Of a stretch of 64,000 nt of DNA, positions 8,102 to 23,345 are shown piece by piece; position 1 is the stretch's first letter, and the number at the start of each line of letters is the position of its first letter. The notes under the pieces were generated by a model. The model was given only the letters and a program-made list of their open reading frames with translations, was not told the DNA's origin and made no database searches. The DNA is taken from the NCBI GenBank assembly GCA_965227515.1, contig CBDDFZ010000001.1, forward strand, positions 3,104,001 to 3,168,000. The letters are read 5' to 3'. The DNA is from Alphaproteobacteria bacterium. Its GTDB lineage: Bacteria; Pseudomonadota; Alphaproteobacteria; CALKHQ01. The position numbers were made by a program, and so were the translations under genes.

Positions 8102-8887
8102 ATGCTAATCGACAGTCACTGCCATCTCGACTATTTCGGCGACGAGGCCGACGACGCGGTGGCGCGGGCGCATGCCGCCGGTGTCGACGCCATGCTGACC
8201 ATCTCCACCAAGATGGAGACGTTCCCGACCGTGCGCGCCATTGCCGCGCGCCATGCGTCGGTGGCGTGCTCGGTTGGCGTTCACCCGCATAAGGCGGCGG
8301 AGCATGCCGACCTGGGGACAGCGGCGCTGTGCGAGTTGGCAGAGGACGACAACGTGGTGGGCATCGGCGAGACCGGGCTCGACTATTTCTATGAGCACAG
8401 CCCGCGCGACGCGCAGATCGCCTGTTTTCGCGCGCACATCCAGGCCGCCCAACGCACCGGGCTGCCGCTGATCGTGCACACCCGCGATGCCGACGACGAC
8501 ACCGCGGCGATCCTGGCCGAGCACCTGGACGAGGCGCCGTTCACCGGCGTGATCCATTGCTTCTCCAGCGGTCGCGCGCTGGCGGAGCGCTGCCTGGAAC
8601 TCGGCTTCCACATTTCGATCTCCGGTATCGCGACCTTCAAGCGCGCCGACGACCTGCGCGCCACGGTGCGCGAGGTGGTGCCGATGGACCGGCTGCTGGT
8701 GGAGACCGACGCGCCCTATCTTGCGCCGGTGCCGATGCGCGGCAAGCGCAACGAGCCGGCCTACGTCACCCACACCGCCGCTGTGGTGGCCGACCTGAAA
8801 GATGTGCCGGTTCAGGAGCTTATGGACACGACCTCGCGCAATTTCCTGGCTCTGTTCACACGTGCCGCGTTCGGCGGCACCCGCTGA
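8102..8887 (+). CDS. tatD: TatD family hydrolase
   Basis: DSHCHLD, GVHPH, IGETGLDY, ETDAPYL. Confidence 0.93.
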   Translation: MLIDSHCHLDYFGDEADDAVARAHAAGVDAMLTISTKMETFPTVRAIAARHASVACSVGVHPHKAAEHADLGTAALCELAEDDNVVGIGETGLDYFYEHSPRDAQIACFRAHIQAAQRTGLPLIVHTRDADDDTAAILAEHLDEAPFTGVIHCFSSGRALAERCLELGFHISISGIATFKRADDLRATVREVVPMDRLLVETDAPYLAPVPMRGKRNEPAYVTHTAAVVADLKDVPVQELMDTTSRNFLALFTRAAFGGTR

Positions 8888-8901
8888 CGACAACGGGCGG
8901 C

Positions 8902-9750
8902 ATGACCGACCGCCGCATGCATGTCCGCGTGCTGGGGTGCGGTGGGTCGCAGGGCGTGCCGACCATTCTGGGCAACTGGGGGCGCTGCGACCCCACCGAC
9001 CCGCGCAACCGGCGCCAGCGCACCTCGATCCTGATCGAAGTGGAGGAGGGGCCGCGTATCCTGGTCGACGCCTCGCCCGATCTGCGTGCCCAGTGCCTGG
9101 ACATGGGCGGCCTCGATCATCTGGACGCCATCGTCTTCACCCATGCGCATGCCGATCATTGCCACGGCATCGACGATCTGCGCCCGATCACGCGCCGCCG
9201 CGACGGCCCGCTGCCGATCTATGCCGACCCCAAGACCCTGGAACAGCTTCACAAGCGCTTCGGCTATGGCTTCGTGGAGATTTCCGGGCCGCGGCCATAC
9301 GGCCCTTGGCTGGCGGGCAACGCGTTCGACGGCCCGTTTGAAATAGGCGGCTTGCCGATCATCCCGTTCAAGCAGGTGCATGGCCGTTTCAGGTCGATGG
9401 GTTTTCGTTTCGGGCCAATGGCTTACTCGACAGACCTGAATCTGCTGCCGGAACAGGCGTTCGAGGTGCTGGCTGGCGTTCATACCTGGCTGGTCGACTG
9501 CCAGACCGACCGCCCCCACCCCACACACTCCCATGTCGACCAGACGCTGGCCTGGATCCGCCGGGTGCGCCCGGAGCGCTCCGTGCTGATCCATATGGAC
9601 GAAACCCTGGACTACGCGGCGCTGGACCGGCTGTGCCCGCCCGGTGTGGTGCCGGCACACGACGGCATGGTCTTCGACGTGCCGCTGGACGTTCGCGCGG
9701 TGGACGAAGCGCCCGGTCTCAGCCAAAAAGTGGACGCCGCGCAGGGTTAG
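8902..9750 (+). CDS. MBL-fold metallo-hydrolase (PhnP-like)
   Basis: LGCGGS.GVP, THAHADHCHGIDD; usual neighbour of tatD. Confidence 0.9.
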   Translation: MTDRRMHVRVLGCGGSQGVPTILGNWGRCDPTDPRNRRQRTSILIEVEEGPRILVDASPDLRAQCLDMGGLDHLDAIVFTHAHADHCHGIDDLRPITRRRDGPLPIYADPKTLEQLHKRFGYGFVEISGPRPYGPWLAGNAFDGPFEIGGLPIIPFKQVHGRFRSMGFRFGPMAYSTDLNLLPEQAFEVLAGVHTWLVDCQTDRPHPTHSHVDQTLAWIRRVRPERSVLIHMDETLDYAALDRLCPPGVVPAHDGMVFDVPLDVRAVDEAPGLSQKVDAAQG

Positions 9751-9826
9751 CCCGTTTGCTGCGTATAATCATCCGTGACCCTCCTGCCCGCCCCAACTGA
9801 CCACGCCTAACGATCGGACCTCTCGA

Positions 9827-10537
9827 ATGTTCAAGCTCTTCATGCGCCTGCACGGCTGGATCACCTTCATTCCGCTCTTCATGGGCGCGCTCGGGCTGAT
9901 GGCCAGCACCGGAATATCGGACCGAGAGGCCGCGTTGGACGAGAACGGTGTCACGGTCGATGCGCAGATCATCGGCATGCGTACCTACACCCGGCACTCG
10001 ACCAGCAACAATTCGACCACCACGGTCTACGAAGTCCGGTTCCACTTCCCCGTCCCGGACAGCCCGGACGGCCCGCTGCACTACGAGACCGTCGACGTGT
10101 CGTCCGACTTCTATGAATCGTTGGAAATCAACACGTCCGCGCCGGTGCGATACCTGCCGGAGAACCCGGATATCAACGAGTTTGAACCTGGCGCGCTGAG
10201 CGAGAACTCGACCGCCGCTCTCATCGTCGGCGTCGTATTCGTGCTCTGCTCTCTGGCGGGGGTGGCTTTTGTCCTGCGCAAGGCGATGCGCATGCGCGCG
10301 ATCGGCCGCAATGGCGCGCAGGCGACGGCGACGGTCACCGGCATCGTCAACCATACCAACAATCACAAGCTCAAGTTCACCTACAAGGACCGGGCAGGGG
10401 TTGAGCGGGAAGGGGCCACCATGCCGGGCAGCCTGAAGCGGATTGCCGGGGTGGAAGAGGGCGACACCATCCAGGTGCGCTACAACCCCGACGCGCCCGA
10501 GAAGAACGTCTATTGGGAGCGGGATCTCTGCCTGTGA
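9827..10537 (+). CDS. Membrane protein with two DUF3592-like repeats
   Basis: Two TM segments each followed by a beta-rich unit ending VRYLPENP / VRYNPDAP. Confidence 0.65.
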   Translation: MFKLFMRLHGWITFIPLFMGALGLMASTGISDREAALDENGVTVDAQIIGMRTYTRHSTSNNSTTTVYEVRFHFPVPDSPDGPLHYETVDVSSDFYESLEINTSAPVRYLPENPDINEFEPGALSENSTAALIVGVVFVLCSLAGVAFVLRKAMRMRAIGRNGAQATATVTGIVNHTNNHKLKFTYKDRAGVEREGATMPGSLKRIAGVEEGDTIQVRYNPDAPEKNVYWERDLCL

Positions 10538-10538
10538 T

Positions 10539-11171
10539 TTACGCGCGCTGCATGGCGGCCGTGTAGATACCGGCACCGATCAGCAGGCTGCCACTGCCAC
10601 GGTTCAACCACGCCCAGGCCCGTGACGAGCGGACGAGCGTGCGCAGCCGGTCGACAAGTAGCACCCACAGCAGCACCACCGCCGCCGCCATGCCGACGAA
10701 AGTCGCCTCCAGGATGGCGAACTGCAGCAACACTGGCTCATGCGGTGTCACAAACTGCGGTACGAACGCTATGAAAAATATGATGCTTTTCGGGTTCAAT
10801 GCGGTGACCGCATAGGCGTGCCAGAACATGCGCCGCTGCCGCTTGCGTGTCGCCTCCGGCGCGAGGTCGCTGTCGGCCATTGCTGGCCCGCCGGCGCGCC
10901 ACATCCGCCAGCCGAGCCATACCAGATAGATCGCGCCAGCAATCTTCAGCACCGTGAACGCGGTGGCCGATGCCGCCAGGATCGCACCGGCGCCGGCCAG
11001 CGACGCCGTCATCGCGGTCAGGTCGCCTAGCGCCACGCCGGGCACGGTGCGCCATCCGGTGCGCCGGCCCTGGCCAAGCGCGTAGCTGACCACCAGCAGC
11101 ACCGTCGGCCCCGGAATGGCCAGCACGACGCTGCAGGCAACGACAAAGGCAAGCCAGGTTTCAAACGGCAC
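10539..11171 (-). CDS. LysE/RhtB family translocator
   Basis: IPGPTVLLVV, GA.YL.WLG, ALNPKSIIFF.AF.PQF. Confidence 0.9.
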   Translation of the reverse strand: MPFETWLAFVVACSVVLAIPGPTVLLVVSYALGQGRRTGWRTVPGVALGDLTAMTASLAGAGAILAASATAFTVLKIAGAIYLVWLGWRMWRAGGPAMADSDLAPEATRKRQRRMFWHAYAVTALNPKSIIFFIAFVPQFVTPHEPVLLQFAILEATFVGMAAAVVLLWVLLVDRLRTLVRSSRAWAWLNRGSGSLLIGAGIYTAAMQRA

Positions 11172-11194
11172 GGGCGGTCTCCGGGACGCGAAAT

Positions 11195-11698
11195 CTAGAG
11201 TTTGGCGTCGATGAGTATGAGCAGGGCCTTGATACGGCCGAATTCGCCGTTCAGGTCGGCCCGCGCTTGCATCACAAACGACAGATCGATCTCGGCGGCC
11301 ACATCGTCAGGCAGGTCTATATAGGCGCCGGCGACGCGCACGTCATTCACAAGATCCTGCCACCCATCGCCGCACGCCTGGGCACGCGCCATCGCCGCGC
11401 GGATGCGGTCCGCCTTGTCGTCTGGCGTGGTGCCGCGCGGCATGTCGTCGTGATAGCCATCCAGCATGTCGTAGAACGGCGAGATCACCGCATCGGCGTC
11501 GCTCAGCACTTGGGCCAGATTGACCAGCACGTCCTCGGCTGGCGTCTCGTCGCCGAGCAGGCCGTCAACCTCATCGACATAGGCGCAATAGGCCTCGACG
11601 TTCTTTTCGAAGGCTTCGACCGTTGGCAGGCTTTGCGCCACGGCGAGCGGCGCCGTTGCCAACAGTGTCGTGCAAACCATTGCCGTGAAACGAAACAT
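11195..11698 (-). CDS. Secreted acidic hypothetical protein
   Basis: GGAGG upstream of ATG 11698, signal peptide MFRFTAMV...AVA-Q. Confidence 0.65.
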   Translation of the reverse strand: MFRFTAMVCTTLLATAPLAVAQSLPTVEAFEKNVEAYCAYVDEVDGLLGDETPAEDVLVNLAQVLSDADAVISPFYDMLDGYHDDMPRGTTPDDKADRIRAAMARAQACGDGWQDLVNDVRVAGAYIDLPDDVAAEIDLSFVMQARADLNGEFGRIKALLILIDAKL

Positions 11699-11773
11699 TG
11701 TGCAGCCTCCGGGTCGGCGGTGGTGCAGGCGAGACTCGTCCATTCGTTCGCCCGACGCAACATGTCCGTCCAT

Positions 11774-11801
11774 ATTTTCCATAATATAAATTATGCGATC
11801 T
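11774..11801 (-). other. dif: dif site (XerC arm AGATCGCATAA, core TTTATA, XerD arm TTATGGAAAAT); attL of the integrated element
   Basis: 11-6-11 architecture with CGCATAA/TTATG inner arms; KOPS polarity switches here. Confidence 0.88.
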
Positions 11802-11908
11802 TCGCGCATACGTTTGTTCTCGTTGGCGCGACCCTCGCATAGATCGATGTTCCGGTGCTTCGGGTGGCAATCGCCTAGCTGAAACCGGGACACCAGGGGC
11901 GCGCGGCC

Positions 11909-12535
11909 ATGCGTAGCCCCTTCTACACCCCCGATGATTCATTCGAGGTCGATGTTGAGCCGGATGGCGATTGCGCCCGGCTGATCATCCGCGCAAAGGC
12001 CAGCAGGCTAGAGATCGCGCTCCGCGTGGAATGGCCGGTTTTCGAGGGCGTCCTCGCGAAGTCGCTCCGCTTCATCGATCCGGTTCGGCGTGTCGAAATC
12101 GAGCGCCAGGCGGAAGCCGAACGGCGACTGGCCGAACGCGAAGCACTGTTGGCCGAGCTTCGCGTGGAAGGCCGGAAGTATCTGTTCGAACTGAACGGCC
12201 TTCGCAATTCAGGTGTCAGCGCTTCCGACAGTTGGGATGAAGTTGCCGACCGCCACGGCGTCAATGTGGACCGGGTGCAGGTGGCCGTCAGGCTGCACCA
12301 ACGGGCAATGCGCCTCGCCCGAGACACCCAGATCGTTGAGCTGGTCAACAAGGGGCTGTCCAACGCCGCAGTAGCCAGAGAAGCCGGCGTAACGCCCGCC
12401 ATCGTCTCAGGCGTGCTGCGAAAGGCCCGATCAGATGGCCGCGTTATCGGCACTCGCGTTGTCCCTCCCCCAGCCGAGCCAGATACCGAAGCCGATGACG
12501 ACGTAGCCGCCGCCGTGGGAGGTCGCGATGTTTGA
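11909..12535 (+). CDS. Element protein with C-terminal HTH (paralog of 20875-21447)
   Basis: RDTQIVELVNKGLSNAAVAREAGVTPAIVSGVL HTH; overlaps rep start. Confidence 0.75.
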   Translation: MRSPFYTPDDSFEVDVEPDGDCARLIIRAKASRLEIALRVEWPVFEGVLAKSLRFIDPVRRVEIERQAEAERRLAEREALLAELRVEGRKYLFELNGLRNSGVSASDSWDEVADRHGVNVDRVQVAVRLHQRAMRLARDTQIVELVNKGLSNAAVAREAGVTPAIVSGVLRKARSDGRVIGTRVVPPPAEPDTEADDDVAAAVGGRDV

Positions 12536-14096
12536 CCCCCGCACATCGACGTCGCTCACACAACGCCAGCAAAGCCACGAGACGTTGGAAGCCGGGTCAA
12601 GGGCCGGCTCGGGAGACCGCGCGATAGCGCGGCGGACGGCCCTTGAGGCGGCTGGAAACGGCAAGCCTCTACGGGCGGGTGCGGTGAACGCGGCCGGCGC
12701 ACAGCGCCGGTCCAAGTCCGCCGCACCCCTGCCCGCCGGCGAGGCACGGGGGCGCGGGGGCAAGGCCCCCGCACAGGGCGGCGACAGCCGGCCATCCCTT
12801 GATAGACTCGCAAGTTATCCTTCACCCTCGATAGTCGGCCAACCGGCACACTATGGTGCAGCATCTACCCGGCCGCCCCATCGCGATGACGACAGCCTGC
12901 ATGGCAAGGTTGCCCGCCACCGGCAACGTCGAGCGGCGGCACGCGCCCTGCCCTCTGAGCGGGTTTGCACATGCGGCCAGAACGCAATCGGTCGGTCGGT
13001 CCTGCTGCACAAGCGTGACGGCCAGGCGCATTACTCCGGCGTCGAGACATGCGGATCGGTTTGGCACTGTCCGGTGTGCGCAGCGAAGATCACTGAGGCG
13101 CGGAAGGCCGAAGTCGAGGCCGTGTTGCGTGCGCACCTGGCGGCCGGCGGCCTGGCGCGGATGGCGACGCTGACCATCCCTCACCGTCCGTTCCAGCGCT
13201 GCAAGGATCTGCGCCAGGCCGTGACCAAGGCATGGGGCTGCGTGAAGGCAGGCCAGACATGGCGACGAAACCGGGACCATGTCGGGTGGCTTGGCGATGT
13301 CCGTGCACTGGAGATCACGCACGGCTCCAATGGCTGGCACCCTCACTTGCACGTCCTGATCCTGATTGAACCAGGCGCGACGGATGAGGTGATCGCGGAG
13401 TTCGGTGAATGGCTGTTCGACCGATGGGCGAAGGCCATTTGGAAGCTGGGTTTCGGCGATTGCGCGCGATCTGCATTCACGTTCGAGCCGGTCAGCGACG
13501 AAGGCGCGGCCGAGTACGTTGGCAAGTGGGGCGCGGCCCTTGAACTGACCAAGGGCCACATCAAGCAAGGCCGCGGCGGCCGCACGCCTTGGCAGATATT
13601 GGCCGACCTTGCCGCTTTCAATCGGTACGAGGATCGGCGGCTGTTCCGCGAATACGGGCGATCATTCAAGGGCGCGCGCCAGCTTGTTTGGAGCCAGGCG
13701 TTCAAGCGCCTGGACGGTCGCTCCGAGCCGAGCATACGCGGTCGGTATCTCGCGGACCCCGAACTCGACGACGACGAGCTGGCGGTTGACGATGCGTCGC
13801 CCGACACAGTCGTGGCGATCATCGATCGAGATGTTTTCGAGGAAGTCGCATCCTCCGGCCGGACGGCCGAGCTGTTGTGCGCGCTCGAAAATCACGGGCT
13901 TGCAGGTGTCCTAGACCTGCTCTCCGAACTCGGCGTGGCCTACGACGTTGGCCAGGGCCCGAGTGAGACACGTGGCCAATTCGTGCCGTGGATCACGTGC
14001 AACAGACCACCGGGACCGGACCGACCGCCGAGCTGGCGGCGCCCTCCCCCTTTCCATCAATCACAGGAGACTGGCTATGAATACAAACACCATTGA
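12528..14096 (+). CDS. Rolling-circle replication initiator (HUH, Rep_1/pC194-pIJ101-like)
   Basis: CGSVWHCPVC, motif I ATLTIPH, motif II GWHPHLHVL, motif III AEYVGK; GGAGG upstream. Confidence 0.88.
   Translation: MFDPRTSTSLTQRQQSHETLEAGSRAGSGDRAIARRTALEAAGNGKPLRAGAVNAAGAQRRSKSAAPLPAGEARGRGGKAPAQGGDSRPSLDRLASYPSPSIVGQPAHYGAASTRPPHRDDDSLHGKVARHRQRRAAARALPSERVCTCGQNAIGRSVLLHKRDGQAHYSGVETCGSVWHCPVCAAKITEARKAEVEAVLRAHLAAGGLARMATLTIPHRPFQRCKDLRQAVTKAWGCVKAGQTWRRNRDHVGWLGDVRALEITHGSNGWHPHLHVLILIEPGATDEVIAEFGEWLFDRWAKAIWKLGFGDCARSAFTFEPVSDEGAAEYVGKWGAALELTKGHIKQGRGGRTPWQILADLAAFNRYEDRRLFREYGRSFKGARQLVWSQAFKRLDGRSEPSIRGRYLADPELDDDELAVDDASPDTVVAIIDRDVFEEVASSGRTAELLCALENHGLAGVLDLLSELGVAYDVGQGPSETRGQFVPWITCNRPPGPDRPPSWRRPPPFHQSQETGYEYKHH
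12754..12804 (+). other. Putative double-strand origin (dso)
   Basis: Hairpin GCGGGGGC-AAG-GCCCCCGC followed by CTTGATA (12798-12804), the pC194/phiX174-type nick motif. Confidence 0.55.
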
Positions 14097-14856
14097 TCTC
14101 GAGGGGCTGCCGGCGCGCATGCGGAAGGCCCGCGATGAGGCAGGGCTGACTCGTGAGCGGATGGCCAAGCTCACTGGCATTCCTGCGAAGTCGATTGAAC
14201 GCTATGAGGCTGGTCTGGCCGAACCTCCTGCGAGCCGCCTCAAAGCGTTCTGCGACGCCTGTGATGCGGACCAATTCGAAGTGATGACGGGAGAGCAGCG
14301 GATGCTTCGGGACGATACTGTTGCCAGTTCTGGTGACTACACAGGCAACCCTCCGAGGAACGTCCCGCAGACCATCTCTGAGGCGAATTCGCCCGTATAC
14401 GGGATTAAGGCGCTGCTCAGCGACCTGGATGGCCTGCGCCAATCAAAGTTCATGGATGCTAGCCGTCGCGGCGCCGCCTTGGTTGACGAGTTGCATTTAC
14501 TCATGAACAGGCTGGAGGCAGGAGAATTGATGGCACTCGCCAATGAGCGCGGGATCGATCCTGCGAAGTGTCATGACGAGGACCAACTGTCGTCACTGTT
14601 TCAGGCTGATTTTGACCGAGCGCAACACCAGTGCGCTTCGATCCAGGATCGCATCATTGATACAGCGGTACTCGGAATCGACCTATTCGACTTGCAGGAC
14701 GACGAACTTCGCGATGTCGTGGCAGAAATGGCATCGACCGGTTTGATGGATTTTTGGAGTCGATGGGACTTGTCTGATAGCCGAGTTCATAGAATTGCTC
14801 AGCTCCGCGATCCGTTGAGACGGGCTGCCTATTCGGGTCGAGGACTAGAGCTCTGA
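14077..14856 (+). CDS. XRE-family HTH protein with unknown C-terminal domain
   Basis: RMRKARDEAGLTRERMAKLTGIPAKSIERYEAG; AGGAG upstream. Confidence 0.8.
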   Translation: MNTNTIDLEGLPARMRKARDEAGLTRERMAKLTGIPAKSIERYEAGLAEPPASRLKAFCDACDADQFEVMTGEQRMLRDDTVASSGDYTGNPPRNVPQTISEANSPVYGIKALLSDLDGLRQSKFMDASRRGAALVDELHLLMNRLEAGELMALANERGIDPAKCHDEDQLSSLFQADFDRAQHQCASIQDRIIDTAVLGIDLFDLQDDELRDVVAEMASTGLMDFWSRWDLSDSRVHRIAQLRDPLRRAAYSGRGLEL

Positions 14857-14997
14857 TTTTCACTTGGTTGCCCCAGCCAGGAAGGCCAATGTTGTCAAGA
14901 ACAATCGAGCGATGCCAGGCTATCCGACGCAACAGCAATACCGATGTTCTGAGAATATCACCTAGTTTCATTCGTCTTGCGCTATAGGAGCCAAAAA

Positions 14998-16768
14998 ATG
15001 GTGAAGTCGCTCAACTTGCTGCGAAATGTTGGCAAATTCGACAATGTGACGTCGGGGGCAAGCCTCCCATTTGGCCGCTTGACCGTTGTGTATGCGGAGA
15101 ATGCAAGGGGCAAGACCACTCTGGCTGCGATTCTGCGGTCACTGGCTTCGGGTCACCCTGAGCCTGTTACTGAGCGAACCCGGTTGGGGCAGCCTGATCT
15201 GCCTCACATTGTGGTGGATACCGGCACTGCACCACCTGCCGTCTTTCAGAATGGCAGTTGGAGCCGGACAGCCTCTGAGATTGTCATTTTTGATGACATC
15301 TTCGTCTCGGAGAATGTGCACTCAGGCATACAGGTTGGCGCGGCACAACGGCAGAACCTGCATGAATTGATCGTCGGTGCGCCAGGCATTGCCTTGGCTC
15401 GTGCTGTGCAGGTGGAAGTGGAAAAGGTGGAAGTCCACAACCGGACGCTTCGGCAACGCGAAGCCGCCATTCCCGAGCGAATTCGCGGTGAGCTTTCCGT
15501 TGACGCATTCTGTGCACTTGAAGCCGTCCCAGACATAGATGAACGCATTCAAATAGCCGAGCGCCGGCTAGCCGCCGCCCGGGATGCTAGCAATGTGGCA
15601 GAGATGGGTATCTTTGTGGATGTGAAGCTTCCCAAGATCGATGCTGATGCGCTGCAATCCCTGCTCACGACATCCCTCTCGGAGCTCGAAACTTACGCAT
15701 TAGACCGCGTCCGAGAGCACTTCGAACGTATGGGTTCGAATGCCGAAAATTGGGTGGGCCAAGGCATGGCTCATGCAGATGCGCTGATGGAGCATGGAAA
15801 TTCCGAATGCCCCTTTTGCGCTCAGCCACTGGCGGACTCGCCACTGTTTGCCCACTATCGCGCGTTTTTCGGAGAGGAATACAGAGCTCTGACAGACAGG
15901 ATCGCGACGGCGATTGCAGATTTCCGATCCACCCAAGCTGGTGACGTGCCCGCCGCATTCGAGCGAGGTATCCGCGAAGCGGTTGAGAAACAATCGTTCT
16001 GGAAGGATTTTGCTGAAGTTCCCTCTTTCGAAGTCCCGACGGAGTCGATCGCATTGGTCTGGAAGTCCGCACGTCAAGAGGTTCGGAAATTGTTGGATGC
16101 CAAACGGGCGTCTCCTCTGGAGCCGGTTCATCTTCCCGAAAGCGCAATTCATGCAATCTATGAACACAACCAGAATTGTGATCGAGTCAGCGAATTCTCT
16201 GAAACTCTGACGGACCTAAATTCAACGTTGGAAGTAGTGAAGGAAGACGCCCGTGAGGCAAATATTGCCTCTTTGGTTCGCGATTTAAGTCTGTTGAAAG
16301 TGGCAAAGGTTCGACACGAGTCTGACGTTGATAAATTGTGCAAAGAATATCTTTCCGAGAGGAAAAATAAAGAGACGACAGAGCAACGACGAGAAGCTGC
16401 CAGAGATAAGTTAAACTTGCATCGTCAGGCGGCTTTCCCCGCTTATGGTATTGCGATTAATGATTTTCTTGGCCGGTTCAATGCTAGCTTCCGGCTGGGG
16501 CCAGTTGATGCGGTTAATACTCGAGGGGGATCAGCTGCCAATTATGAACTTCTAATTGATGGGAATGCCGTTCCGTTAACCGGCAAACCCGGGCAACCAA
16601 GTTTTGGTAATACCCTAAGTGCCGGTGATCGAAGTACGTTAGCGCTCGCATTCTTCTTTGCTAGTTTAGAAAGTGACCCTGATCTTTCTAAGAAGGTTAT
16701 TGTCATTGATGACCCAATGACTAGTTTGGACGAACACCGTGTCCTTCACACGCTGCAGGAGATAGATC
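14998..16768 (+). pseudogene. RloC-like (AAA_13) ABC-ATPase, N-terminal part, interrupted by IS
   Basis: Walker A AENARGKTT, zinc hook CPFC, signature LSAGD, Walker B IDDPMTSLD; as interrupted, the frame stops at 16785 inside the TIR. Confidence 0.8.
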
Positions 16769-16829
16769 GGGCATTATATACTTGACTGAACACGACTGAC
16801 TCCCCATCTATGGCTGTAGGAGAACAGCC

Positions 16830-17741
16830 ATGCAACTCACCGATCCCATATTCACCGACGAAGACAAGGCCCGCGCGTACCTTGAGGCGACCCGCTGGCC
16901 CGACCATGTGCATTGCCCGTTCTGCGGCGAGCACGAGACGGTCAAGGCGCTGCCGCCCAAGGGTTCAATGGGCAAGGGCTGGTATCACTGCCGCGCCTGC
17001 CGCAAGAAGTTCACCGTTCGCGTCGGCACCCTGTACGAGCGCTCGCATGTGCCGCTGAACAAGTGGCTGCTGGCGACCTATCTGCTGTGCTCCAGCAAGA
17101 AGGGCATCAGCGCGCACCAGCTTCACCGTACCTTGGGCGTCACCTACAAGACCGCCTGGTTCATGGCGCACCGCATCCGCGAGGGCATGCGCGAGTTCAA
17201 GCCCGGTCCGCTCGGTGGCCAGAACAAGACCGTTGAGGTTGACGAGACCTACGTCGGCGGCAAGGCGAAGAACGCAAAGCGCGGCGCGCCAGTGCCGAAG
17301 AAGGAAGCCGTTGTCTCCCTGCTAGAGCGTGACGGTAAGGTGCGCTCCTACCACCTGCCGGAAGTCAACCGCGCCAATCTGCGCCCGATGATGACCGCTC
17401 AGATTGACCGCAAGTCGTACCTCATGACCGACGACGCGAAGGTCTACAAGTCCATCGGCCGCGAGTATGCCGGGCACGGCTCGGTCAACCACAGCGCCGA
17501 AGAGTACGTGCGCGGCACCTACTGGCACACGAACACCATCGAGGGCTATTTCAGCATCCTCAAGCGCGGCATCACGGGCGTCTATCAGCACGTCAGCCAA
17601 GAGCACCTGAAGCGCTACCTTGGCGAGTTCGACTTCCGCTATAACGAGCGCCACGTTACCGATGGCGAGCGCACCGAAGCCGCCCTCAAAGGCATCGAAG
17701 GCAAGCGCCTAACTTATCGACGGCCTGACGCAAGGGCGTGA
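16830..17741 (+). CDS. IS1595 family transposase
   Basis: CPFC..CRAC zinc ribbon, VEVDETYVGG, LMTDD, HTNTIEGYFSILKR, YL.EFDFRYN. Confidence 0.95.
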   Translation: MQLTDPIFTDEDKARAYLEATRWPDHVHCPFCGEHETVKALPPKGSMGKGWYHCRACRKKFTVRVGTLYERSHVPLNKWLLATYLLCSSKKGISAHQLHRTLGVTYKTAWFMAHRIREGMREFKPGPLGGQNKTVEVDETYVGGKAKNAKRGAPVPKKEAVVSLLERDGKVRSYHLPEVNRANLRPMMTAQIDRKSYLMTDDAKVYKSIGREYAGHGSVNHSAEEYVRGTYWHTNTIEGYFSILKRGITGVYQHVSQEHLKRYLGEFDFRYNERHVTDGERTEAALKGIEGKRLTYRRPDARA

Positions 17742-17876
17742 CGCCACCAAAAGCCTGACATTTCAACAGGTTCTGGCGCGCCTTCTCACCCGGCACATAA
17801 AATAAACTTACTCGCAAACCGTGCAGGTCTAGACTCCCGCACAAGCGTTCCGTAGGCTGTCGAATCGACGGCCAAG

Positions 17877-17963
17877 AAAAAGGGCGAGTGTGCAACCACT
17901 CGCCCCTTGGCCTTCCGCAACGGATCATAGGGCCGTCTGCGGAACGCAGTCCAAATTGGACAC
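17877..17963 (-). ncRNA. Putative ~87-nt antisense sRNA
   Basis: Minus-strand TTGACC-N17-TAGGGT (17998-17970), two hairpins, terminator GGGCGAGTG-GTTGCA-CACTCGCCC-TTTTT. Confidence 0.5.
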
Positions 17964-18038
17964 ACGGAAACCCTAGAGGTTCCGGGACTCTCGGTCAAGA
18001 CGGCTCGCATCCATCCACGTCCCACAGGAGACGAGCCT

Positions 18039-18305
18039 ATGGACTATCAAGTGACCTGCATCCGCCGCGATGGTGCCGATCTGGACCGTCGCATTGATCG
18101 CCTGGGCGGCCCATGGTTCAACCGAACCATCGATGATGTCATCAACGGCATCCAGTACGGCGGAGATCGCTACTGGACATCCGTCAACGGGCTGTCGGTG
18201 TGGGTTGTCGTTGATCAACATCCAACCTCTGGCCGCCTGTATCTGCGGACGGAGCCGGACAGCTACCCGCCGAACAACCTCCTGAGCCTTCCCGAATGCC
18301 CGTAA
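18039..18305 (+). CDS. DUF3892-like protein
   Basis: VTCIRR...YLRTEPD...NNLLSLPECP matches recalled DUF3892 pattern; AGGAG RBS. Confidence 0.75.
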   Translation: MDYQVTCIRRDGADLDRRIDRLGGPWFNRTIDDVINGIQYGGDRYWTSVNGLSVWVVVDQHPTSGRLYLRTEPDSYPPNNLLSLPECP

Positions 18306-18453
18306 CGGTGGCGTAGGGTGATGCATACCCAGCAGGCTCTCGCGCCCATACGAGGGCCTGCTGGGCTGCGTACAATCCCGCGTGCTCGTTTGGATGAGGG
18401 TAAGCGACCAGTCGCGCGTGAATCCGCTCCAACTCCGCTGCGATATGGTCCAT
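18184..18453 (-). CDS. Hypothetical protein overlapping the DUF3892-like gene convergently
   Basis: GAGG RBS; helical N-terminus ELERIHARL...YAAQQALVWA. Confidence 0.5.
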   Translation of the reverse strand: MDHIAAELERIHARLVAYPHPNEHAGLYAAQQALVWAREPAGYASPYATVTGIREGSGGCSAGSCPAPSADTGGQRLDVDQRQPTPTAR

Positions 18454-18459
18454 CGCCCA

Positions 18460-18618
18460 CTACCTCTCAGTCTTGCTTTGCTTCGGTTTGCTTGGCTTCT
18501 TGTCCGTGCGCGGCTTCGGCGGGGTGCTCAAGAAGTGCTGCACCACCCGCTCAAACTTGCCATCTTGGGTCTCGCCTGACCCACGCTCGTCATTGGAGCT
18601 TGTTCCATGCTTTGGCAT
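18460..18618 (-). CDS. Small basic 52-aa protein (not in ORF track)
   Basis: MPKHGTSSNDERGSGETQDGKFERVVQHFLSTPPKPRTDKKPSKPKQSKTER; stop lies 7 nt before the next ATG. Confidence 0.4.
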   Translation of the reverse strand: MPKHGTSSNDERGSGETQDGKFERVVQHFLSTPPKPRTDKKPSKPKQSKTER

Positions 18619-19167
18619 ATGCCCGACCCTGATGATCAACGCATCTTCGAAGAGCTTATCGCCGCCACCGATCGAGCTGCGGCAATCGTGGCCGCCGCAT
18701 TCCTGGATGGATGCTTAACCACCACCATTCGATCATACCTAGTTGACGACGCCAAAGGTAATTTGATCCACAATTTGGTTCGCGAAGGCGGGCCAATTGG
18801 CACGCTCGATACCAAGACCCGGCTAGCGTTTGCCTTGGGTATATTCGGGGCCAGCGGGCTGCACGACTTGAAACTGGTGTGCAAGATCCGGAATCGGTTC
18901 GCCCACCAAACGGGTGTCTACAGCTTTAACATGGACCCGACCAAATCGGATTGCGCCAACCTCAAGGTCATAGACCAGTTTGTTTTCGACGTTCGCGAGA
19001 TGCCGCCAAAGGATGAGCGCCACCCGCTACTCACAATGGGCATCTCGAATCGCGATCAGACTCTCAACAATCCGCGCAGACGATTTATGTCTACGGTTGG
19101 CTTGTTCTCCACAGCCCTATATCACGCCCGCCGCACGTCTATGCCCGAAGCAACTCTGCCATTTTGA
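18607..19167 (+). CDS. MtlR-like (HEPN-fold) protein
   Basis: DRAAAIVAAAFLD, GPIGTL..K..LAFALG, KIRNRFAH (Rx4H). Confidence 0.65.
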   Translation: MLWHMPDPDDQRIFEELIAATDRAAAIVAAAFLDGCLTTTIRSYLVDDAKGNLIHNLVREGGPIGTLDTKTRLAFALGIFGASGLHDLKLVCKIRNRFAHQTGVYSFNMDPTKSDCANLKVIDQFVFDVREMPPKDERHPLLTMGISNRDQTLNNPRRRFMSTVGLFSTALYHARRTSMPEATLPF

Positions 19168-19327
19168 CATAAGACGGCGACGCCTTCGTCATCGCTTCGA
19201 AAATGCGAACAACGCACTTTTCGTCGAATCCATCCCCGCGCCAACCGCCGTCTGGCAACTCGTCGACACCTGCTGCAACCATCTCAGGCGTAACCTGAAT
19301 ACCGGCCTGTCCGGTTTGATCTGGCAT
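19139..19327 (-). CDS. Small hypothetical protein at IS right end
   Basis: IQVTPEMVAAG...VVRIFEAM; starts just inside the right TIR. Confidence 0.45.
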   Translation of the reverse strand: MPDQTGQAGIQVTPEMVAAGVDELPDGGWRGDGFDEKCVVRIFEAMTKASPSYVKMAELLRA

Positions 19328-19359
19328 CTCGATTCCGTTCAGTCAAGTATACAATGCCC

Positions 19360-19891
19360 GATAGATCGGCTGGCCAACAAGGTTGCCGGTGTAGTGATAC
19401 TATCGCACTCGAAACCGTTTCTGCTTGGCGTTTGGGACAAATGCCGACAACTAGAGCGGGCGGCTCTAGAAATTAGGCGTCATACTAATGGCTCCACATT
19501 GGAGTCTTGGAACGTAACAGACGCTATGGTGACGGAACATGATCGGCGCTACGCGGACGTGACGTCATATTTGGTACAGGCCGATCCAGCCCTTGAGCGG
19601 AGAGTAGCGGAGTCACTGCGGCCAATGCTCGAGGCCTTCTGCCGAGTTGCCTATCCCACACACTTTACGCCTGGAACGATGTTGGGACAATTTCAAGCCA
19701 CTTGTCACAGGCTGTGCGGCACCCAAGACGAAGTGATGAGCGCCGCAGACGCTCAGGAGCTCCGACTGATCTTGGACTACGCCAACCGCTTTCACCATGA
19801 CTCAAACGCAGCTTACGCAACTGAGTTGATCAACGATGCGACATTGTCTGATTTCGCGAGTCGGACATGCAATTTTATCAGCCGGCGCTGA
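19360..19891 (+). pseudogene. C-terminal part of the RloC-like gene (H-loop plus HEPN-like domain)
   Basis: Continues the frame after the TSD: IDRLANKVAGVVILSH...LRPMLEAF...YANRFHH. Confidence 0.8.
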
Positions 19892-20004
19892 GTGATTTCG
19901 CGGGCCAGTGCTTCCGCCCGCCATATCTGACGAAATTTCTGATTGACCGATTCCCATTGATTCAAAGAGTATGGCTCAAGAGTTTTTGAGCCGAATGTGA
20001 GTCG

Positions 20005-20685
20005 ATGGGTACAGACAAGAGCCAATTGCACCGTGTCCCGTTGGGCGAGGTACTGCGATCGCATCGCGAAAAAAGCGGCCGTTCGCGTGCCGACGTGGCA
20101 GCGTCAACCGGCATGACCGAAGCAGCGATACAGCGTTATGAGCAAGCCGGGGTTGACGAGGATGGCACATTTCCTTCCTCCCCACGCTTGGCAATGCTTT
20201 GCCTGGAGCTGGATATATCACCCGATCTCGCACTACGCAGTTGTCTTTCCGATATTCAACACGAAAGATATAGAGAGAAAGAGTTTGGTGCTTCCCCATT
20301 TGATCATCCAGCCTTCGAATGGATACTCGATCAGTATGTTGCCTACCTTCGCGACATTGATATTCTAAAGCATACTCTTCGCATTATTATTAGTGAGCTA
20401 GATAACCCTGGCAGCATCGAGCCGGAATTGTTCGAGTGGTTGTTAACGCAGGCTCGTACTATTGCTTCGGTTCACGATGACTTTGTGGGCACGGCATATG
20501 AACGCATAGGAAGAGAACCTCTCGAGATGGACGTGATGGTGCCTGGTGCCCAAGGAGCCCGCGACAAGTCTGGAAAACTGATCGATTGGACCAAATTTGA
20601 CTACGCGAAGATGCGTGCGGCCACACTGGCGGCCGAACGCCGAGCATCAGTTAAAGGGGTTCGTGATCCCGACGCGAAGGCATGA
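20005..20685 (+). CDS. XRE-family HTH protein
   Basis: LGEVLRSHREKSGRSRADVAASTGMTEAAIQRYEQ. Confidence 0.78.
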   Translation: MGTDKSQLHRVPLGEVLRSHREKSGRSRADVAASTGMTEAAIQRYEQAGVDEDGTFPSSPRLAMLCLELDISPDLALRSCLSDIQHERYREKEFGASPFDHPAFEWILDQYVAYLRDIDILKHTLRIIISELDNPGSIEPELFEWLLTQARTIASVHDDFVGTAYERIGREPLEMDVMVPGAQGARDKSGKLIDWTKFDYAKMRAATLAAERRASVKGVRDPDAKA

Positions 20686-20874
20686 GGTCACGGCGAAGAG
20701 CCGAAAGTTGGCTTAACTACGAAGAGGAGAAATACGCCATGAGAATTCGAAGACGGCAAAAGTGGCCAAAAAAATGTGGCCCAGTCCAATTGGACCAGGC
20801 CACGCACTTTGATCTGACGAAACAGAAAGCTGTTGGCGCAGCTTCTCACCAACCGATTTGCATAGGAGGGGCCA

Positions 20875-21447
20875 GTGAGTGAGTTTCGACAAGACCCACC
20901 ATACACCATTCCCGCTGGGCAACCACGCCGAAAAGGGCCGGTTTCATTCACCAAGTTCGGAAACGTTGCGCGACTAAGCTTCGAGTTCGACGCGGCTCAG
21001 TGCGAGTGTCTAACTGACCTGTTGGTGCCCGCGGCCGAGCTTTGCCAAGAAGCGGTCAACGATCACGTGCGCGAGCAGCACGCGCGCTCGGCAGCGCAGC
21101 TAGAGGCCCACGAACGGCACCACAAAGCAATCGGTGAGTTTAGGCGGCTCGGGCTCAGAGCCGCGCGAATCAAACGACGTGAACTGGCCTACGGCCTGAA
21201 GCATCGTGATGCGCTTGCCATTGCCGCCAAACATCTTGAGACGGACGTACCCACCGTCACTCTCGCAGTCGCAATGCACGAGAAGCGTCTCAAGAGCCGC
21301 GTGCAGCGCTTCAAGGATCGAGCGCTTGTCCGGCTTGCGGGACAAGGTCTCTCAAATCGAGAAGTCGCGAAACGTCTAGGTGTGACGCCTTCCTACGCAG
21401 GCAAGCTTGTGCGGATCGCGATTGATCGCGTTGCGACTAAGACCTGA
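20875..21447 (+). CDS. Element protein with C-terminal HTH (paralog of 11909-12535)
   Basis: GLSNREVAKRLGVTPSY; AGGAGG RBS. Confidence 0.75.
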   Translation: MSEFRQDPPYTIPAGQPRRKGPVSFTKFGNVARLSFEFDAAQCECLTDLLVPAAELCQEAVNDHVREQHARSAAQLEAHERHHKAIGEFRRLGLRAARIKRRELAYGLKHRDALAIAAKHLETDVPTVTLAVAMHEKRLKSRVQRFKDRALVRLAGQGLSNREVAKRLGVTPSYAGKLVRIAIDRVATKT

Positions 21448-21554
21448 TGAAGTGTCGCCGCCCAGTCAGACGGATTTTGATTGGGCGGCCCCCTTCCCGG
21501 CTTTTTCCTCTTCTCCAAGAGCGTGTGGTCAGATGAGAACAAACTGCACCGATA

Positions 21555-21582
21555 ACTCACGATACTATAAATTATGCGATCT
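21555..21582 (-). other. Degenerate dif-like attR (intact XerC arm and core, XerD arm GTATCGTGAGT)
   Basis: Shares AGATCGCATAA-TTTATA with dif; XerD arm divergent. Confidence 0.8.
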
Positions 21583-21717
21583 TCGCTGATGCCATTACGC
21601 CGGGTTTTCCGGGCTCTCAGATCGGCGCTCGATGCCTCCCCTGAAGCTGCAACCTTTCAAGAGTCGTCGTAGCGTTCGGGATTGCCAGTGCGCCCCAAGC
21701 GCAGCAGCATATGCGCC

Positions 21718-22425: not shown

Positions 22426-22523
22426 TCGGTATGCCATGGCGGTGACGCCGCATTTGCCGCTTGCCGCGCGCGGGCCGGCTCAGCATGCTGGCCGAACCCC
22501 TTCCTTGCACATGGACCCGGCCG

Positions 22524-23345
22524 ATGCGCGACACGACCGACGGAACCTCTCGCCTGCTGGCGGTTATGGCGCGGCTGCGCGACCCCGATGGCGGCTGTCC
22601 GTGGGACGTGGAGCAGACGTTCGAGACCATCGCGCCCTACACCATCGAGGAAGCCTACGAGGTCGCCGACGCCATCGCGCGCGCCGACATGGACGAACTG
22701 CGCGGCGAGCTGGGCGACCTGCTGTTGCAGGTGGTGTTCCACGCCCGCATGGCCGAGGAAGCCGGCCATTTCGCCTATGACGACGTGGCCCACGCCATCG
22801 CCGACAAGATGATCGACCGCCATCCGCATGTGTTCGGGACGGATGGCGCCGACACGCCCGATGCCGTCAAGCAGACCTGGGAGGCGCGCAAGGCCGAGGA
22901 GCGAGCGGCGAAGGCCTCGAAGGACGGCCGCGTGCCGTCGCTGATGGACGACGTGGCACTCGCCCTGCCCGCCCTGATGCGCGCCGAGAAGCTGCAAAAG
23001 CGCGTGGCGCGGGTCGGTTTCGACTGGGACGAGACCGCGCCGGTATTCGCCAAGGTGCTGGAAGAGCTGGAGGAACTCCGCGCGGTCCACGACGGCGCCG
23101 AGGACGGGGTTGGCGATCCGGATCGGCTGGAGGACGAGGTGGGCGACCTGCTGTTCACCGTCGCCAACCTGGCGCGGCACCTGCGGGTCGACCCGGAAAA
23201 GGCGCTCAGGCGCACCAACGAGAAAGTGGTGCGCCGGTTCCGCTGGATCGAGGACAGCCTGCGCCGCGATGGCCTGACGTTCGATGACGTCGACCTCGCC
23301 GGCCTCGACGCGCGCTGGAACAAGGCGAAGGTTGAGGAGGGTTAG
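22524..23345 (+). CDS. mazG: Nucleoside triphosphate pyrophosphohydrolase
   Basis: GCPWD.EQT, IEEAYEV, ELGDLLLQVVFH, GFDW. Confidence 0.95.
   Translation: MRDTTDGTSRLLAVMARLRDPDGGCPWDVEQTFETIAPYTIEEAYEVADAIARADMDELRGELGDLLLQVVFHARMAEEAGHFAYDDVAHAIADKMIDRHPHVFGTDGADTPDAVKQTWEARKAEERAAKASKDGRVPSLMDDVALALPALMRAEKLQKRVARVGFDWDETAPVFAKVLEELEELRAVHDGAEDGVGDPDRLEDEVGDLLFTVANLARHLRVDPEKALRRTNEKVVRRFRWIEDSLRRDGLTFDDVDLAGLDARWNKAKVEEG

Follow-up and report, generated by a model that had tools for sequence, protein, structure and literature searches.

Positions 11774-21586 of the window, the 64-kb stretch of DNA analysed here (C1:3104001-3168000), are an insertion at dif, placed on the XerC-arm side of that site. 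We read it as an integrated rolling-circle element that has neither a capsid gene nor an integrase gene, that encodes a Rep_1 initiator of the HUH type, and whose sites have the geometry known from TLC-phi and the gonococcal genetic island (GGI); in short, as an IMEX, an integrative mobile element which exploits Xer. We put the probability of this reading at roughly 85%. The host genome consists of two replicons, C1 of 4.07 Mb, which carries the window, and C2 of 1.45 Mb.

Each end of the element is marked by a site of the dif type. The left site, attL, reads ATTTTCCATAA-TATAAA-TTATGCGATCT in the order XerD arm, core and XerC arm, and the right site, attR, reads ACTCACGATAC-TATAAA-TTATGCGATCT. 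Compared with the 28 bp of attL, attR has five mismatches, all of them located within the XerD arm (5 of 11 arm positions), and the core and the XerC arm are identical in the two copies. A perfect direct repeat of 21 bp (11785-11805 and 21566-21586) spans the core and the XerC arm and encloses the insert of ~9.8 kb; this repeat has two matches in the 64-kb window when up to three mismatches are allowed, and none in 100 shuffles. The original prediction for this stretch had described a 21-bp direct repeat around ~9.8 kb, with a full dif on the left and, on the right, a copy that keeps the XerC arm and the core next to a degenerate XerD arm. The boundary letters are exactly as described there, and the comparison of the two sites bears out the assignment of their arms. 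From 11792 to 11810, the XerC arm of attL and the element's first bases make up a short hairpin (stem 6 bp, loop 7 nt).

The left copy is the true dif of the chromosome, since the polarity of the FtsK orienting polar sequences (KOPS) flips there, since the dif-type palindrome is nearly unique in the genome, and since relatives keep a dif in the same place between a gene with a metallo-β-lactamase (MBL) fold and mazG. The cumulative skew of the KOPS word GGGNAGGG is maximal at C1:3114406, 1.4 kb from dif at C1:3115774. Within 116 kb to the left of dif, 16 KOPS words are on the plus strand and 2 on the minus strand, and within 134 kb to its right all 37 words are on the minus strand. The palindrome CATAA-N6-TTATG is found in the whole 5.5-Mb genome only at dif and at one further site with a GC-rich core (C1:3255830). 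Among the host's proteins are XerD (331 bits, above the cut-off), an FtsK with a gamma domain (95 bits) and a recombinase of the XerC type (307 bits). XerD (C2:582512-583402) and FtsK (C2:566452-566634) have their genes on C2, the replicon of 1.45 Mb, where no 28-mer lies within 8 mismatches of the dif of C1. The cumulative GC skew of C1 shows a broad peak near 3.25 Mb, ~135 kb off dif, and fails to come back to zero along the contig.

The unoccupied form of the site was found in relatives. The search for empty sites took in 40 related genomes, and the three of them that belong to the same family represent another genus (loci L017-L019). In each of them one dif, of the sequence type seen in the window, stands between the MBL-fold gene and mazG, with 133-530 bp on the MBL side of dif and 112-876 bp on the mazG side. 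An empty single-dif allele in relatives, on which the original prediction had been made to depend in advance, is thus present in 3 of 3 same-family genomes. The MBL-fold gene and mazG bracket dif, or an element borne by dif, in named Alphaproteobacteria of several families, and five loci (L020, L027, L028, L038 and L041) show both flanks together, the element lying in between. The shared gene order independently marks those sites as chromosomal dif loci, and the conserved MBL-dif-mazG neighbourhood could serve to locate both dif and IMEXs in Alphaproteobacteria. The base composition also sets the region apart, the GC content of 1-kb bins being 0.50-0.61 between 14001 and 21000 and mostly 0.64-0.71 elsewhere in the window. 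Public assembled contigs (Logan) bridge both junctions of the integrated form; one contig set, possibly from the source sample, holds the whole stretch, and three small contigs of a second study, 100% identical, bridge the right junction. No Logan contig joins 21582 to 11785 and none skips the element, a result that is uninformative on excision, as assembled contigs drop rare variants.

Two further pieces of DNA near such sites deserve a mention. On the XerD side of dif, ~2 kb of the window (9750-11770) are missing from the three same-family genomes; they encode, all on the minus strand, a 285-aa open reading frame (ORF) of unknown family, an exporter of the LysE type and a protein that is probably secreted. 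No remnant of a dif-like site was seen in this segment, a 17-nt pattern of XerD arm plus core matching only dif itself at up to 3 mismatches. In L020 (Kiloniellaceae), ~3 kb (13514-16506) separate the hybrid site from mazG and may represent a further or older insert.

The element encodes no integrase, as had been claimed for it, and this check too came out in favour of the original prediction. Pfam and NCBIfam scans returned, for the ten ORFs scanned, no integrase, capsid, Zot, relaxase or secretion family; the XerD and XerC models find tyrosine recombinases at four and three places in the genome, respectively, none of them inside the element; and a local hidden Markov model (HMM) of integrases has no match between 9000 and 24500 of the window. 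A second local HMM, built from 14 capsid ORFs of the PM2 coat type, detected no such gene in the window, in L020-L029 or in the six-frame translation of the whole genome. A search of the whole genome with Pfam P2_N gave no match either, its control being likewise without any match.

The replicon was judged by its initiator and its candidate origin. Rep has 306 homologues, PF01446 is present in all 120 of those listed, and phrog_11698 is matched at 263 bits. In an alignment of 24 sequences the residues H271, P272, H273 and H275 of the HUH motif (HPHxH) are invariant together with Y330 and K333, and the N-terminal ~90 residues of Rep are not conserved. The candidate nick motif of the double-strand origin, CCCTTGATA, is common to 10 of 11 small elements (the compact relatives introduced below), always in the syntenic place and on the strand of Rep; the sole other word equally widespread among the small elements encodes the GWHP of the HUH motif. 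According to the excerpted text of PMC10378824, Rep_1 proteins recognise CTTGATA in the double-strand origin and nick there. The conservation of CCCTTGATA may be partly due to coding, because the motif overlaps a conserved N-terminal peptide of Rep. With the catalytic residues and the origin motif kept, the replicon looks intact as far as its sequence can tell.

The closest Reps (46-58% identity) sit in compact elements with a backbone of 4.2-6.6 kb and a common gene order: an orf1-type helix-turn-helix (HTH) gene, Rep, XRE1, a slot, XRE2 and a last gene. These small elements fall into eight of an int-type (L021-L026, L039 and L146) and seven of a dif-type (the window, L020, L027, L028, L147, L148 and L149). 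In the int-type elements, which are 5.1-6.6 kb in size, the last gene is a tyrosine integrase in 8 of 8 cases; four of these integrases are confirmed by Pfam, and all eight match the local HMM, five of them having been used to build it. A tRNA gene (tRNA-Ala, tRNA-Val or tRNA-Met) stands at the right end of L023, L024, L025, L026 and L039, that is, of five of the seven elements scanned with aragorn; L021 and L022 (Terasakiella) have a 32-bp repeat that is not dif, and no tRNA gene was found there. L146 has a 46-bp repeat resembling the 3′ end of a tRNA, but no tRNA gene was called there. The dif-type elements sit at dif or carry a hybrid site, none of the seven has an integrase, and in all seven a second HTH gene, of the orf190 type, is found at the integrase's place. 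Close relatives therefore differ mainly in the last gene, which is an integrase where the target is not dif but mostly a tRNA gene, and a second HTH gene where the target is dif. The int-type siblings serve as a natural control for those at dif. The alternation between integrase and dif runs through the whole family, and the swap of the last gene singles out one candidate that can be tested as a new Xer cofactor.

The phylogeny of Rep bears on how often this swap has taken place. The Rep tree (52 rows, quick search) was made before L146-L149 were fetched and leaves these four out. Ten small elements form one clade in it, with a support of 97 in the Shimodaira-Hasegawa-like approximate likelihood ratio test (SH-aLRT), and within this clade dif-types and int-types are interleaved, the rows nearest to the window being L020 (dif-type) and L024 (int-type). 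The int-type L039 falls outside the clade and groups with L035 and L040 (SH-aLRT 100). The interleaving implies that the integration module has been exchanged more than once. The pairs L021/L022, L023/L026 and L027/L028 are near-identical in the tree, so that the counts of eight int-type and seven dif-type elements overstate the number of independent lineages. One member, L147, which belongs to the small clade and has 52% Rep identity, holds an element-to-element junction, from a circle or a tandem, together with attR in one assembly: its contig opens with 78 nt of the element end, followed by the site and the element start, and ~6.1 kb further on that end and site recur, with other DNA after them.

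The linkage of Rep to dif extends beyond the small elements. A scan of genome contigs gave 174 Rep relatives, the best 80 of which were kept as loci (1.13 Mb in total). Twenty of these best 80 loci of 174 have a perfect CATAA-N6-TTATG palindrome no more than 10 kb from Rep, with dif-like arms in 19, as against ~0.4 expected at its frequency in the window's genome (2 per 5.5 Mb). A strict search of 160 loci, allowing up to 2 mismatches in 17 nt, found 15 loci in which a full dif and a half-degenerate copy bracket Rep, and shorter shared stretches of 13-18 bp were seen in L020, L035, L037 and L048, the last of which also passed the strict test. That Rep homologues are linked to dif in other genomes, the other finding on which the prediction had been staked beforehand, is borne out by both searches.

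Among the larger relatives are prophages with a double-jelly-roll (DJR) capsid. The clade of small elements is nested in a 36-row alphaproteobacterial clade (SH-aLRT 95) together with 14 DJR-capsid elements of ~10-12 kb. The coat protein is of the PM2 type; P2_N and P2_C are both matched in L030, and the local HMM matches 15 loci at E < 1e-15. Vibrio phages have annotated DJR capsid proteins to which these coat proteins are 27-32% identical. Next to dif, the DJR prophages end in a gene of the orf190 type. A circular contig of ~11.1 kb with a capsid gene (L099, 127-bp terminal overlap) has a single site, in which a degenerate XerD arm is followed by an AT-rich core and then by a XerC arm, and this site is located next to an orf190-type gene. 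The opposite site geometry occurs in L030 (7856 / 18698), L031 (7751 / 17931), L038 (8165 / 19294) and L073 (8062 / 18998), all of ~10-11 kb: the copy on the MBL side keeps the XerD arm and the core and has a degenerate XerC arm, the element lying on the XerD side of dif. No description of an IMEX attP with a degenerate XerC arm was found in the literature searched.

Plasmid records with a related Rep (29-39% identity among the matches listed) number 161, of which 158 are non-mobilizable; a further 15 records with a related Rep are of phages, mostly filamentous ones. When the Rep of the window was compared with deposited phages by tblastn, only filamentous or unclassified phages were hit, at 31-37% identity. 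A scan of IMG/VR viral contigs for free circular small elements gave 45 loci with a Rep identity of at most 39%, none of them from the small clade. The elements of the 'Charybdis' preprint were considered as well and are unrelated, having no Rep and likely archaeal hosts.

The KOPS words inside these elements are polarised with respect to dif. In the window element five words point toward the intact dif (12463, 12727, 12946, 14042 and 21491) and none points away, at a density ~8 times the genome average. The counts toward and away from the intact dif are 19 and 0 for six small dif-type elements (window included), 28 and 2 for eight larger ones in which the XerD arm is degenerate, and 17 and 1 for four in which the XerC arm is; over the 18 dif-borne elements, close relatives (L027/L028 and L045/L048) included, 64 words are directed toward the intact dif and 3 away from it. 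The small elements have Rep directed away from the intact dif, the large ones have it directed toward dif, and the strand of KOPS relative to Rep flips accordingly between the two groups, which argues that the polarity follows dif and not gene orientation. The aiming of KOPS at the intact dif suggests selection to keep chromosome dimer resolution working. No KOPS polarity inside IMEXs is described in the literature searched.

The coordinates of all features are collected in Table 1. The backbone of the window element amounts to ~4.9 kb, with every gene on the plus strand in the order orf1, Rep, XRE1, cargo slot, XRE2, orf66 and orf190. One local family HMM unites orf1, orf190 and the first gene of all sibling elements. 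XRE1 has a weak RstR-family match (29 bits against a cut-off of 80); its true start is probably near 14077, because homologues align from residue ~44. Both XRE1 and XRE2 are present in all small elements. A local search of the loci for relatives of orf66 returned only orf66 itself. The profile scans thus agree with the original prediction of an HUH Rep accompanied by four HTH genes, namely orf1, XRE1, XRE2 and orf190. A scan of the element for promoters and terminators gave counts at or below the shuffled expectation.

Table 1. Features of the element and of its flanks (positions in the window)
Feature	Position	Strand	Remarks
MBL-fold (Lactamase_B_2) gene, flank on XerD-arm side	8557-9750	+	syntenic with dif in many Alphaproteobacteria
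attL, intact chromosomal dif	11774-11801	+	XerD arm 11774-11784, core 11785-11790, XerC arm 11791-11801
orf1, 208 aa, C-terminal HTH	11909-12535	+	weak HTH_28/HTH_23 matches; paralogue of orf190
Rep_1 (HUH) rolling-circle initiator, 522 aa	12528-14096	+	HUH motif residues 271-275, catalytic Tyr 330
CCCTTGATA, candidate double-strand-origin nick motif	12796-12804	+	within 5′ part of Rep ORF
XRE1, XRE-family HTH regulator	13948-14856	+	HTH_31 45.8 bits; conserved ~200-aa C-terminal part
Cargo, N-terminal part, AAA_13 / PADLOC PDC-S06 candidate defence ATPase, 602-aa ORF	14977-16770	+	AAA_13 107 bits
IS1595-family element, 2,591 bp	16769-19359	+	~23-bp terminal inverted repeats
IS transposase	16830-17741	+	DDE_Tnp_IS1595 118 bits, Zn_ribbon_IS1595, NF033547 196 bits
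IS passenger ORF, 117 aa, unknown family	17973-18326	-	
IS passenger ORF, MtlR-like, also phrog_22031	18607-19167	+	
Cargo, C-terminal part	19361-19891	+	PDLC04895 model positions 613-708; reading goes on as I D R L A N K..., same frame, past duplication
XRE2, second XRE-family HTH regulator	20005-20685	+	HTH_31 34.5 bits
orf66, small ORF	20682-20882	+	no Pfam or PHROG match
orf190, terminal C-terminal-HTH gene	20875-21447	+	beside degenerate XerD arm; integrase position of int-type siblings
attR, hybrid site	21555-21582	+	degenerate XerD arm 21555-21565, core 21566-21571, XerC arm 21572-21582
mazG, flank on XerC-arm side	22461-23345	+	syntenic with dif in many Alphaproteobacteria

The slot between XRE1 and XRE2 holds a cargo gene that is broken, because an insertion sequence (IS) of the IS1595 family splits its reading frame. 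The N-terminal part matches PDLC04895 at 167 bits over model positions 1-613 of 784 and enters the IS with its frame reading ..E I D R. The target duplication, GATAGATC, is 8 bp long and stands at 16761-16768 and 19360-19367. This insertion had been overlooked in the original prediction, whose statement that the element has no recombinase holds for site-specific recombinases and fails for recombinases overall, given the DDE transposase of the IS. The sole relative of the IS in the genome is a partial transposase stretch on C2 with 66% identity. The cargo had also been labelled RloC-like; the label stands at the level of the AAA_13 family and goes no further, the match to PrrC being marginal (E = 4e-4).

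The contents of the slot vary from element to element. It is empty in L020, L027 and L028, holds one unknown gene on the reverse strand in each of L147 and L149, and contains a DUF5677 gene in L148 (2886-3782, minus strand); in the int-type L023 it is occupied by an AbiTii abortive-infection gene (12163-13053, minus strand, 161 bits). A candidate defence gene is therefore found in only one of the seven dif-type small elements, that of the window, and defence cargo is occasional and does not define the family. The claim that these elements deliver anti-phage genes retains one candidate, the IS-broken PDC-S06 gene, whose defence function is a putative one derived from its family match; it does not apply to the other dif-type small elements, three of the seven having no cargo and three having genes that are not recognisable as defence genes. 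The one-gene variable slot can nevertheless carry abortive-infection or candidate defence genes.

What route into the chromosome do these sites imply? Host XerC and XerD would have crossed the element with dif, because its attP would consist of a degenerate XerD arm, the host core and the host XerC arm. The steps would be these: the circular form would pair its attP with dif, and the host XerCD would exchange strands in the shared core, giving on one side an intact dif, made up of the chromosomal XerD arm and the element's XerC arm, and on the other a hybrid site with a poor XerD arm. Xer-mediated excision might then release the circle, which Rep would nick at CTTGATA and replicate. The IS1595-family element split the PDC-S06/AAA_13 cargo at a later time. 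Xer dependence, the order of strand exchange, excision and the reversibility of integration are, like the role of orf190, what we infer from the arrangement of sites and genes.

A helper is to be expected in such a scheme, because XerD should bind the degenerate arm of the element poorly. By its position and its distribution, orf190 is the best candidate for a protein that helps Xer act on the poor XerD arm, and would then be a functional analogue of XafT. Its AlphaFold2 model (mean pLDDT 89.9) consists of a β-hairpin, a 66-residue helix and a helical HTH domain. A predicted complex of the host XerD (residues 28-335) with orf190 scored 0.15 against a mark of 0.32; the prediction was run without controls and is neutral on binding. 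One may go further and regard the orf190-type HTH proteins as a new class of Xer cofactors, unrelated to XafT/DUF3653 and enabling the use of sites with one good arm, and the small elements as the first satellites of DJR (Vinavirales-type) phages; this combined proposal is speculative, and we would sooner bet against it than for it.

Several observations weigh against our reading of the element as an Xer-dependent, integrase-less replicon with candidate defence cargo. The Rep match to PF01446 is marginal, at 34.7 bits with a cut-off of 33.2. All three genomes with an empty site come from another genus, none being of the same species, and the public data for this element are contigs of the integrated form only. 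No XafT/DUF3653 was detected in the single proteins of the element at E <= 0.01-0.05, and DUF3653 is not among the 25 most frequent of the 103 families matched by 26 members of the orf190 family; hence the original designation of the element as TLC-like holds for the site geometry and not for XafT. For orf190, a Foldseek search of BFVD with the model gave no match at E <= 0.001 and only generic HTH similarity, and tblastn against 50,697 phage records gave no match at E <= 0.01. The orf190 family is present in the integrase-bearing siblings as well (as orf1), hence the family is not specific to Xer. The KOPS words of the int-type small elements are also biased, 7 to 0, on the same strand as in their dif-type kin, and within the small clade shared ancestry could explain the bias. 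Finally, the cargo gene is broken, and PDC-S06 is a candidate defence family at most.

Four other explanations were weighed. The one that survives best would refine our reading and not replace it: the element would be a satellite of PM2/Jorvik-like DJR phages, having kept the replication and lysogeny modules and using a helper capsid for transfer, in the way that filamentous phages serve TLC-phi and RS1. The small Rep clade (10 rows, SH-aLRT 97) does lie inside the 36-row clade with its 14 DJR-capsid elements, an orf190-type gene is also terminal beside dif in DJR prophages, and the capsid gene has 0 matches in the window and L020-L029, as a satellite would have it. However, neither the six-frame search with the local HMM nor the P2_N search with its silent control found a DJR capsid gene in the window's genome, no capsid gene lies within 10 kb of the small elements, and no packaging signal or capsid-redirecting gene was identified in them. 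IMG/VR contains no member of the small clade (best identity 39%), and related Reps are common on small rolling-circle replicating (RCR) plasmids, as the 161 records, 158 of them non-mobilizable, make clear. We consider a satellite lifestyle unlikely, slightly more so than the combined proposal above.

A second explanation concerns the route of integration. Rep_1 elements make single-stranded intermediates, and the element could have entered as CTX-phi does, with a single-stranded hairpin attP at which XerC alone exchanges one strand pair, irreversibly. The hairpin mentioned above, with its 6-bp stem, overlaps the XerC arm, which would suit this route. The double-stranded junctions of L099 and L147, however, already hold a contiguous site of degenerate arm, core and XerC arm; the core is identical in both copies of the window, so that a complete two-step exchange is possible; and there is no inverted pair of dif-like sites, the 17-nt pattern of XerD arm plus core matching once in the window. 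A CTX-phi-like entry is in our view improbable.

Scarcely better placed, indeed a little worse, is the notion that the element is a decayed dif-type DJR prophage whose structural genes have been deleted and whose mobility has been lost. Rep and the terminal HTH gene are shared with capsid-bearing prophages at dif, and the cargo is already broken by the IS. Random decay, on the other hand, does not fit 15 small elements from several families that have the same compact gene order and full-length backbone ORFs, nor does it fit the gathering of small elements in one supported Rep clade. The catalytic residues of Rep and the origin motif are intact, and the 21-bp repeat is perfect. Least of all do we credit an origin independent of Xer, by a lost integrase, by Rep- or IS-mediated insertion or by a local duplication including half of dif. 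The region does encode a DDE transposase and also an HUH nuclease; but the inverted repeats and the 8-bp duplication that belong to the IS lie inside the cargo gene and leave the outer boundaries unexplained, the crossover falls exactly in the core plus XerC arm of the true dif, at least 15 other loci share this architecture, and the integrase-bearing siblings are at non-dif sites, mostly tRNA genes.

The reading of 11774-21586 as a capsid-less IMEX at dif can now be set beside known systems. The best-understood IMEXs are those of Vibrio, Neisseria and Xanthomonas; TLC replicates by a rolling-circle initiator, and the GGI is a large island that encodes a type IV secretion system. IMEXs as such, the TLC/GGI geometry, the dif-type DJR prophages and Jorvik are all already known. 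As set out in the available portions of PMC6744903 and PMC9226527, the attP of TLC-phi combines a good XerC arm and a core that matches dif with a XerD arm to which XerD binds poorly. Going by those portions, the window element resembles the TLC-phi satellite of Vibrio cholerae in that it is small and capsid-less, sits at dif without an integrase and has the same attP geometry. It is unlike TLC-phi in having no detected XafT/DUF3653, a Rep of the Rep_1/pC194 type and no filamentous-phage genes, and its kinship is with DJR prophages and not with inoviruses. The same two sources, in the parts at hand, describe the GGI as being without XafT and suggest a Xer activation factor of another superfamily (PMC6744903, PMC9226527); in the model outlined in the excerpt of PMC9226527, FtsK strips XerD from the poor site and thereby protects the hybrid site from excision. 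Compared with the GGI, the window element has a backbone of only ~5 kb, a Rep_1 replicon and no secretion or relaxase genes.

A parallel to the alternation of modules comes from Vibrio. The excerpted text of PMC12715192 divides Vibrio DJR prophages and CTX-I inoviruses into dif-types and int-types, with terminal P16/RstR and P15/XafT genes, and reports for them a hypervariable cargo region with defence genes as well as tandem IMEX arrays. To the extent covered by that text, an integrase module alternates with a dif-like attP and terminal regulator genes in both cases, and both have a variable cargo region. Unlike these prophages, the window element has no capsid, an alphaproteobacterial host, and terminal paralogous proteins with a C-terminal HTH that show no detectable similarity to XafT.

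Within Alphaproteobacteria, the comparison is with Jorvik, a membrane-containing DJR virus of ~8.9 kb which, according to the accessible part of PMC10589892, has no integrase, has dif-like attP and attB sites, and is proposed to use XerCD. The same part of that source places an HTH gene next to the attP of Jorvik, ties it to the decision between lysis and lysogeny, and gives the virus a different type of replicase (PMC10589892). As far as this account goes, the window element shares with Jorvik the alphaproteobacterial host, the lack of an integrase, the dif-like site and the HTH gene beside it, and differs from it in having no structural genes and another replicase type. No dif motif is reported in the microviruses of PMC9865509. 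The original prediction had supposed that such elements were not characterised in this lineage; the supposition is too broad, as Jorvik-like alphaproteobacterial prophages have already been proposed as users of XerCD in the accessible part of PMC10589892, and it stands for capsid-less Rep_1 elements at dif, none of which was found in the literature searched. That literature yielded neither a capsid-less Rep_1 clade at dif in Alphaproteobacteria nor a replacement of an integrase by an HTH paralogue. The elements described here would thus make up a new lineage of IMEXs, namely capsid-less rolling-circle elements of Rhodospirillales-type Alphaproteobacteria that use dif without XafT.

With small plasmids of the pC194/pUB110 type, finally, the window element has in common the Rep_1 HUH initiator and the CTTGATA motif; unlike those free plasmids, it is integrated at dif and has a lysogeny-like set of regulators. 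The early region of PM2 resembles a plasmid maintenance region, as stated in the excerpt of PMC1950889. The kinship of Rep ties together small RCR plasmids, integrative elements and PM2/Jorvik-like viruses, and bears on the exchange of modules between plasmids and DJR viruses.

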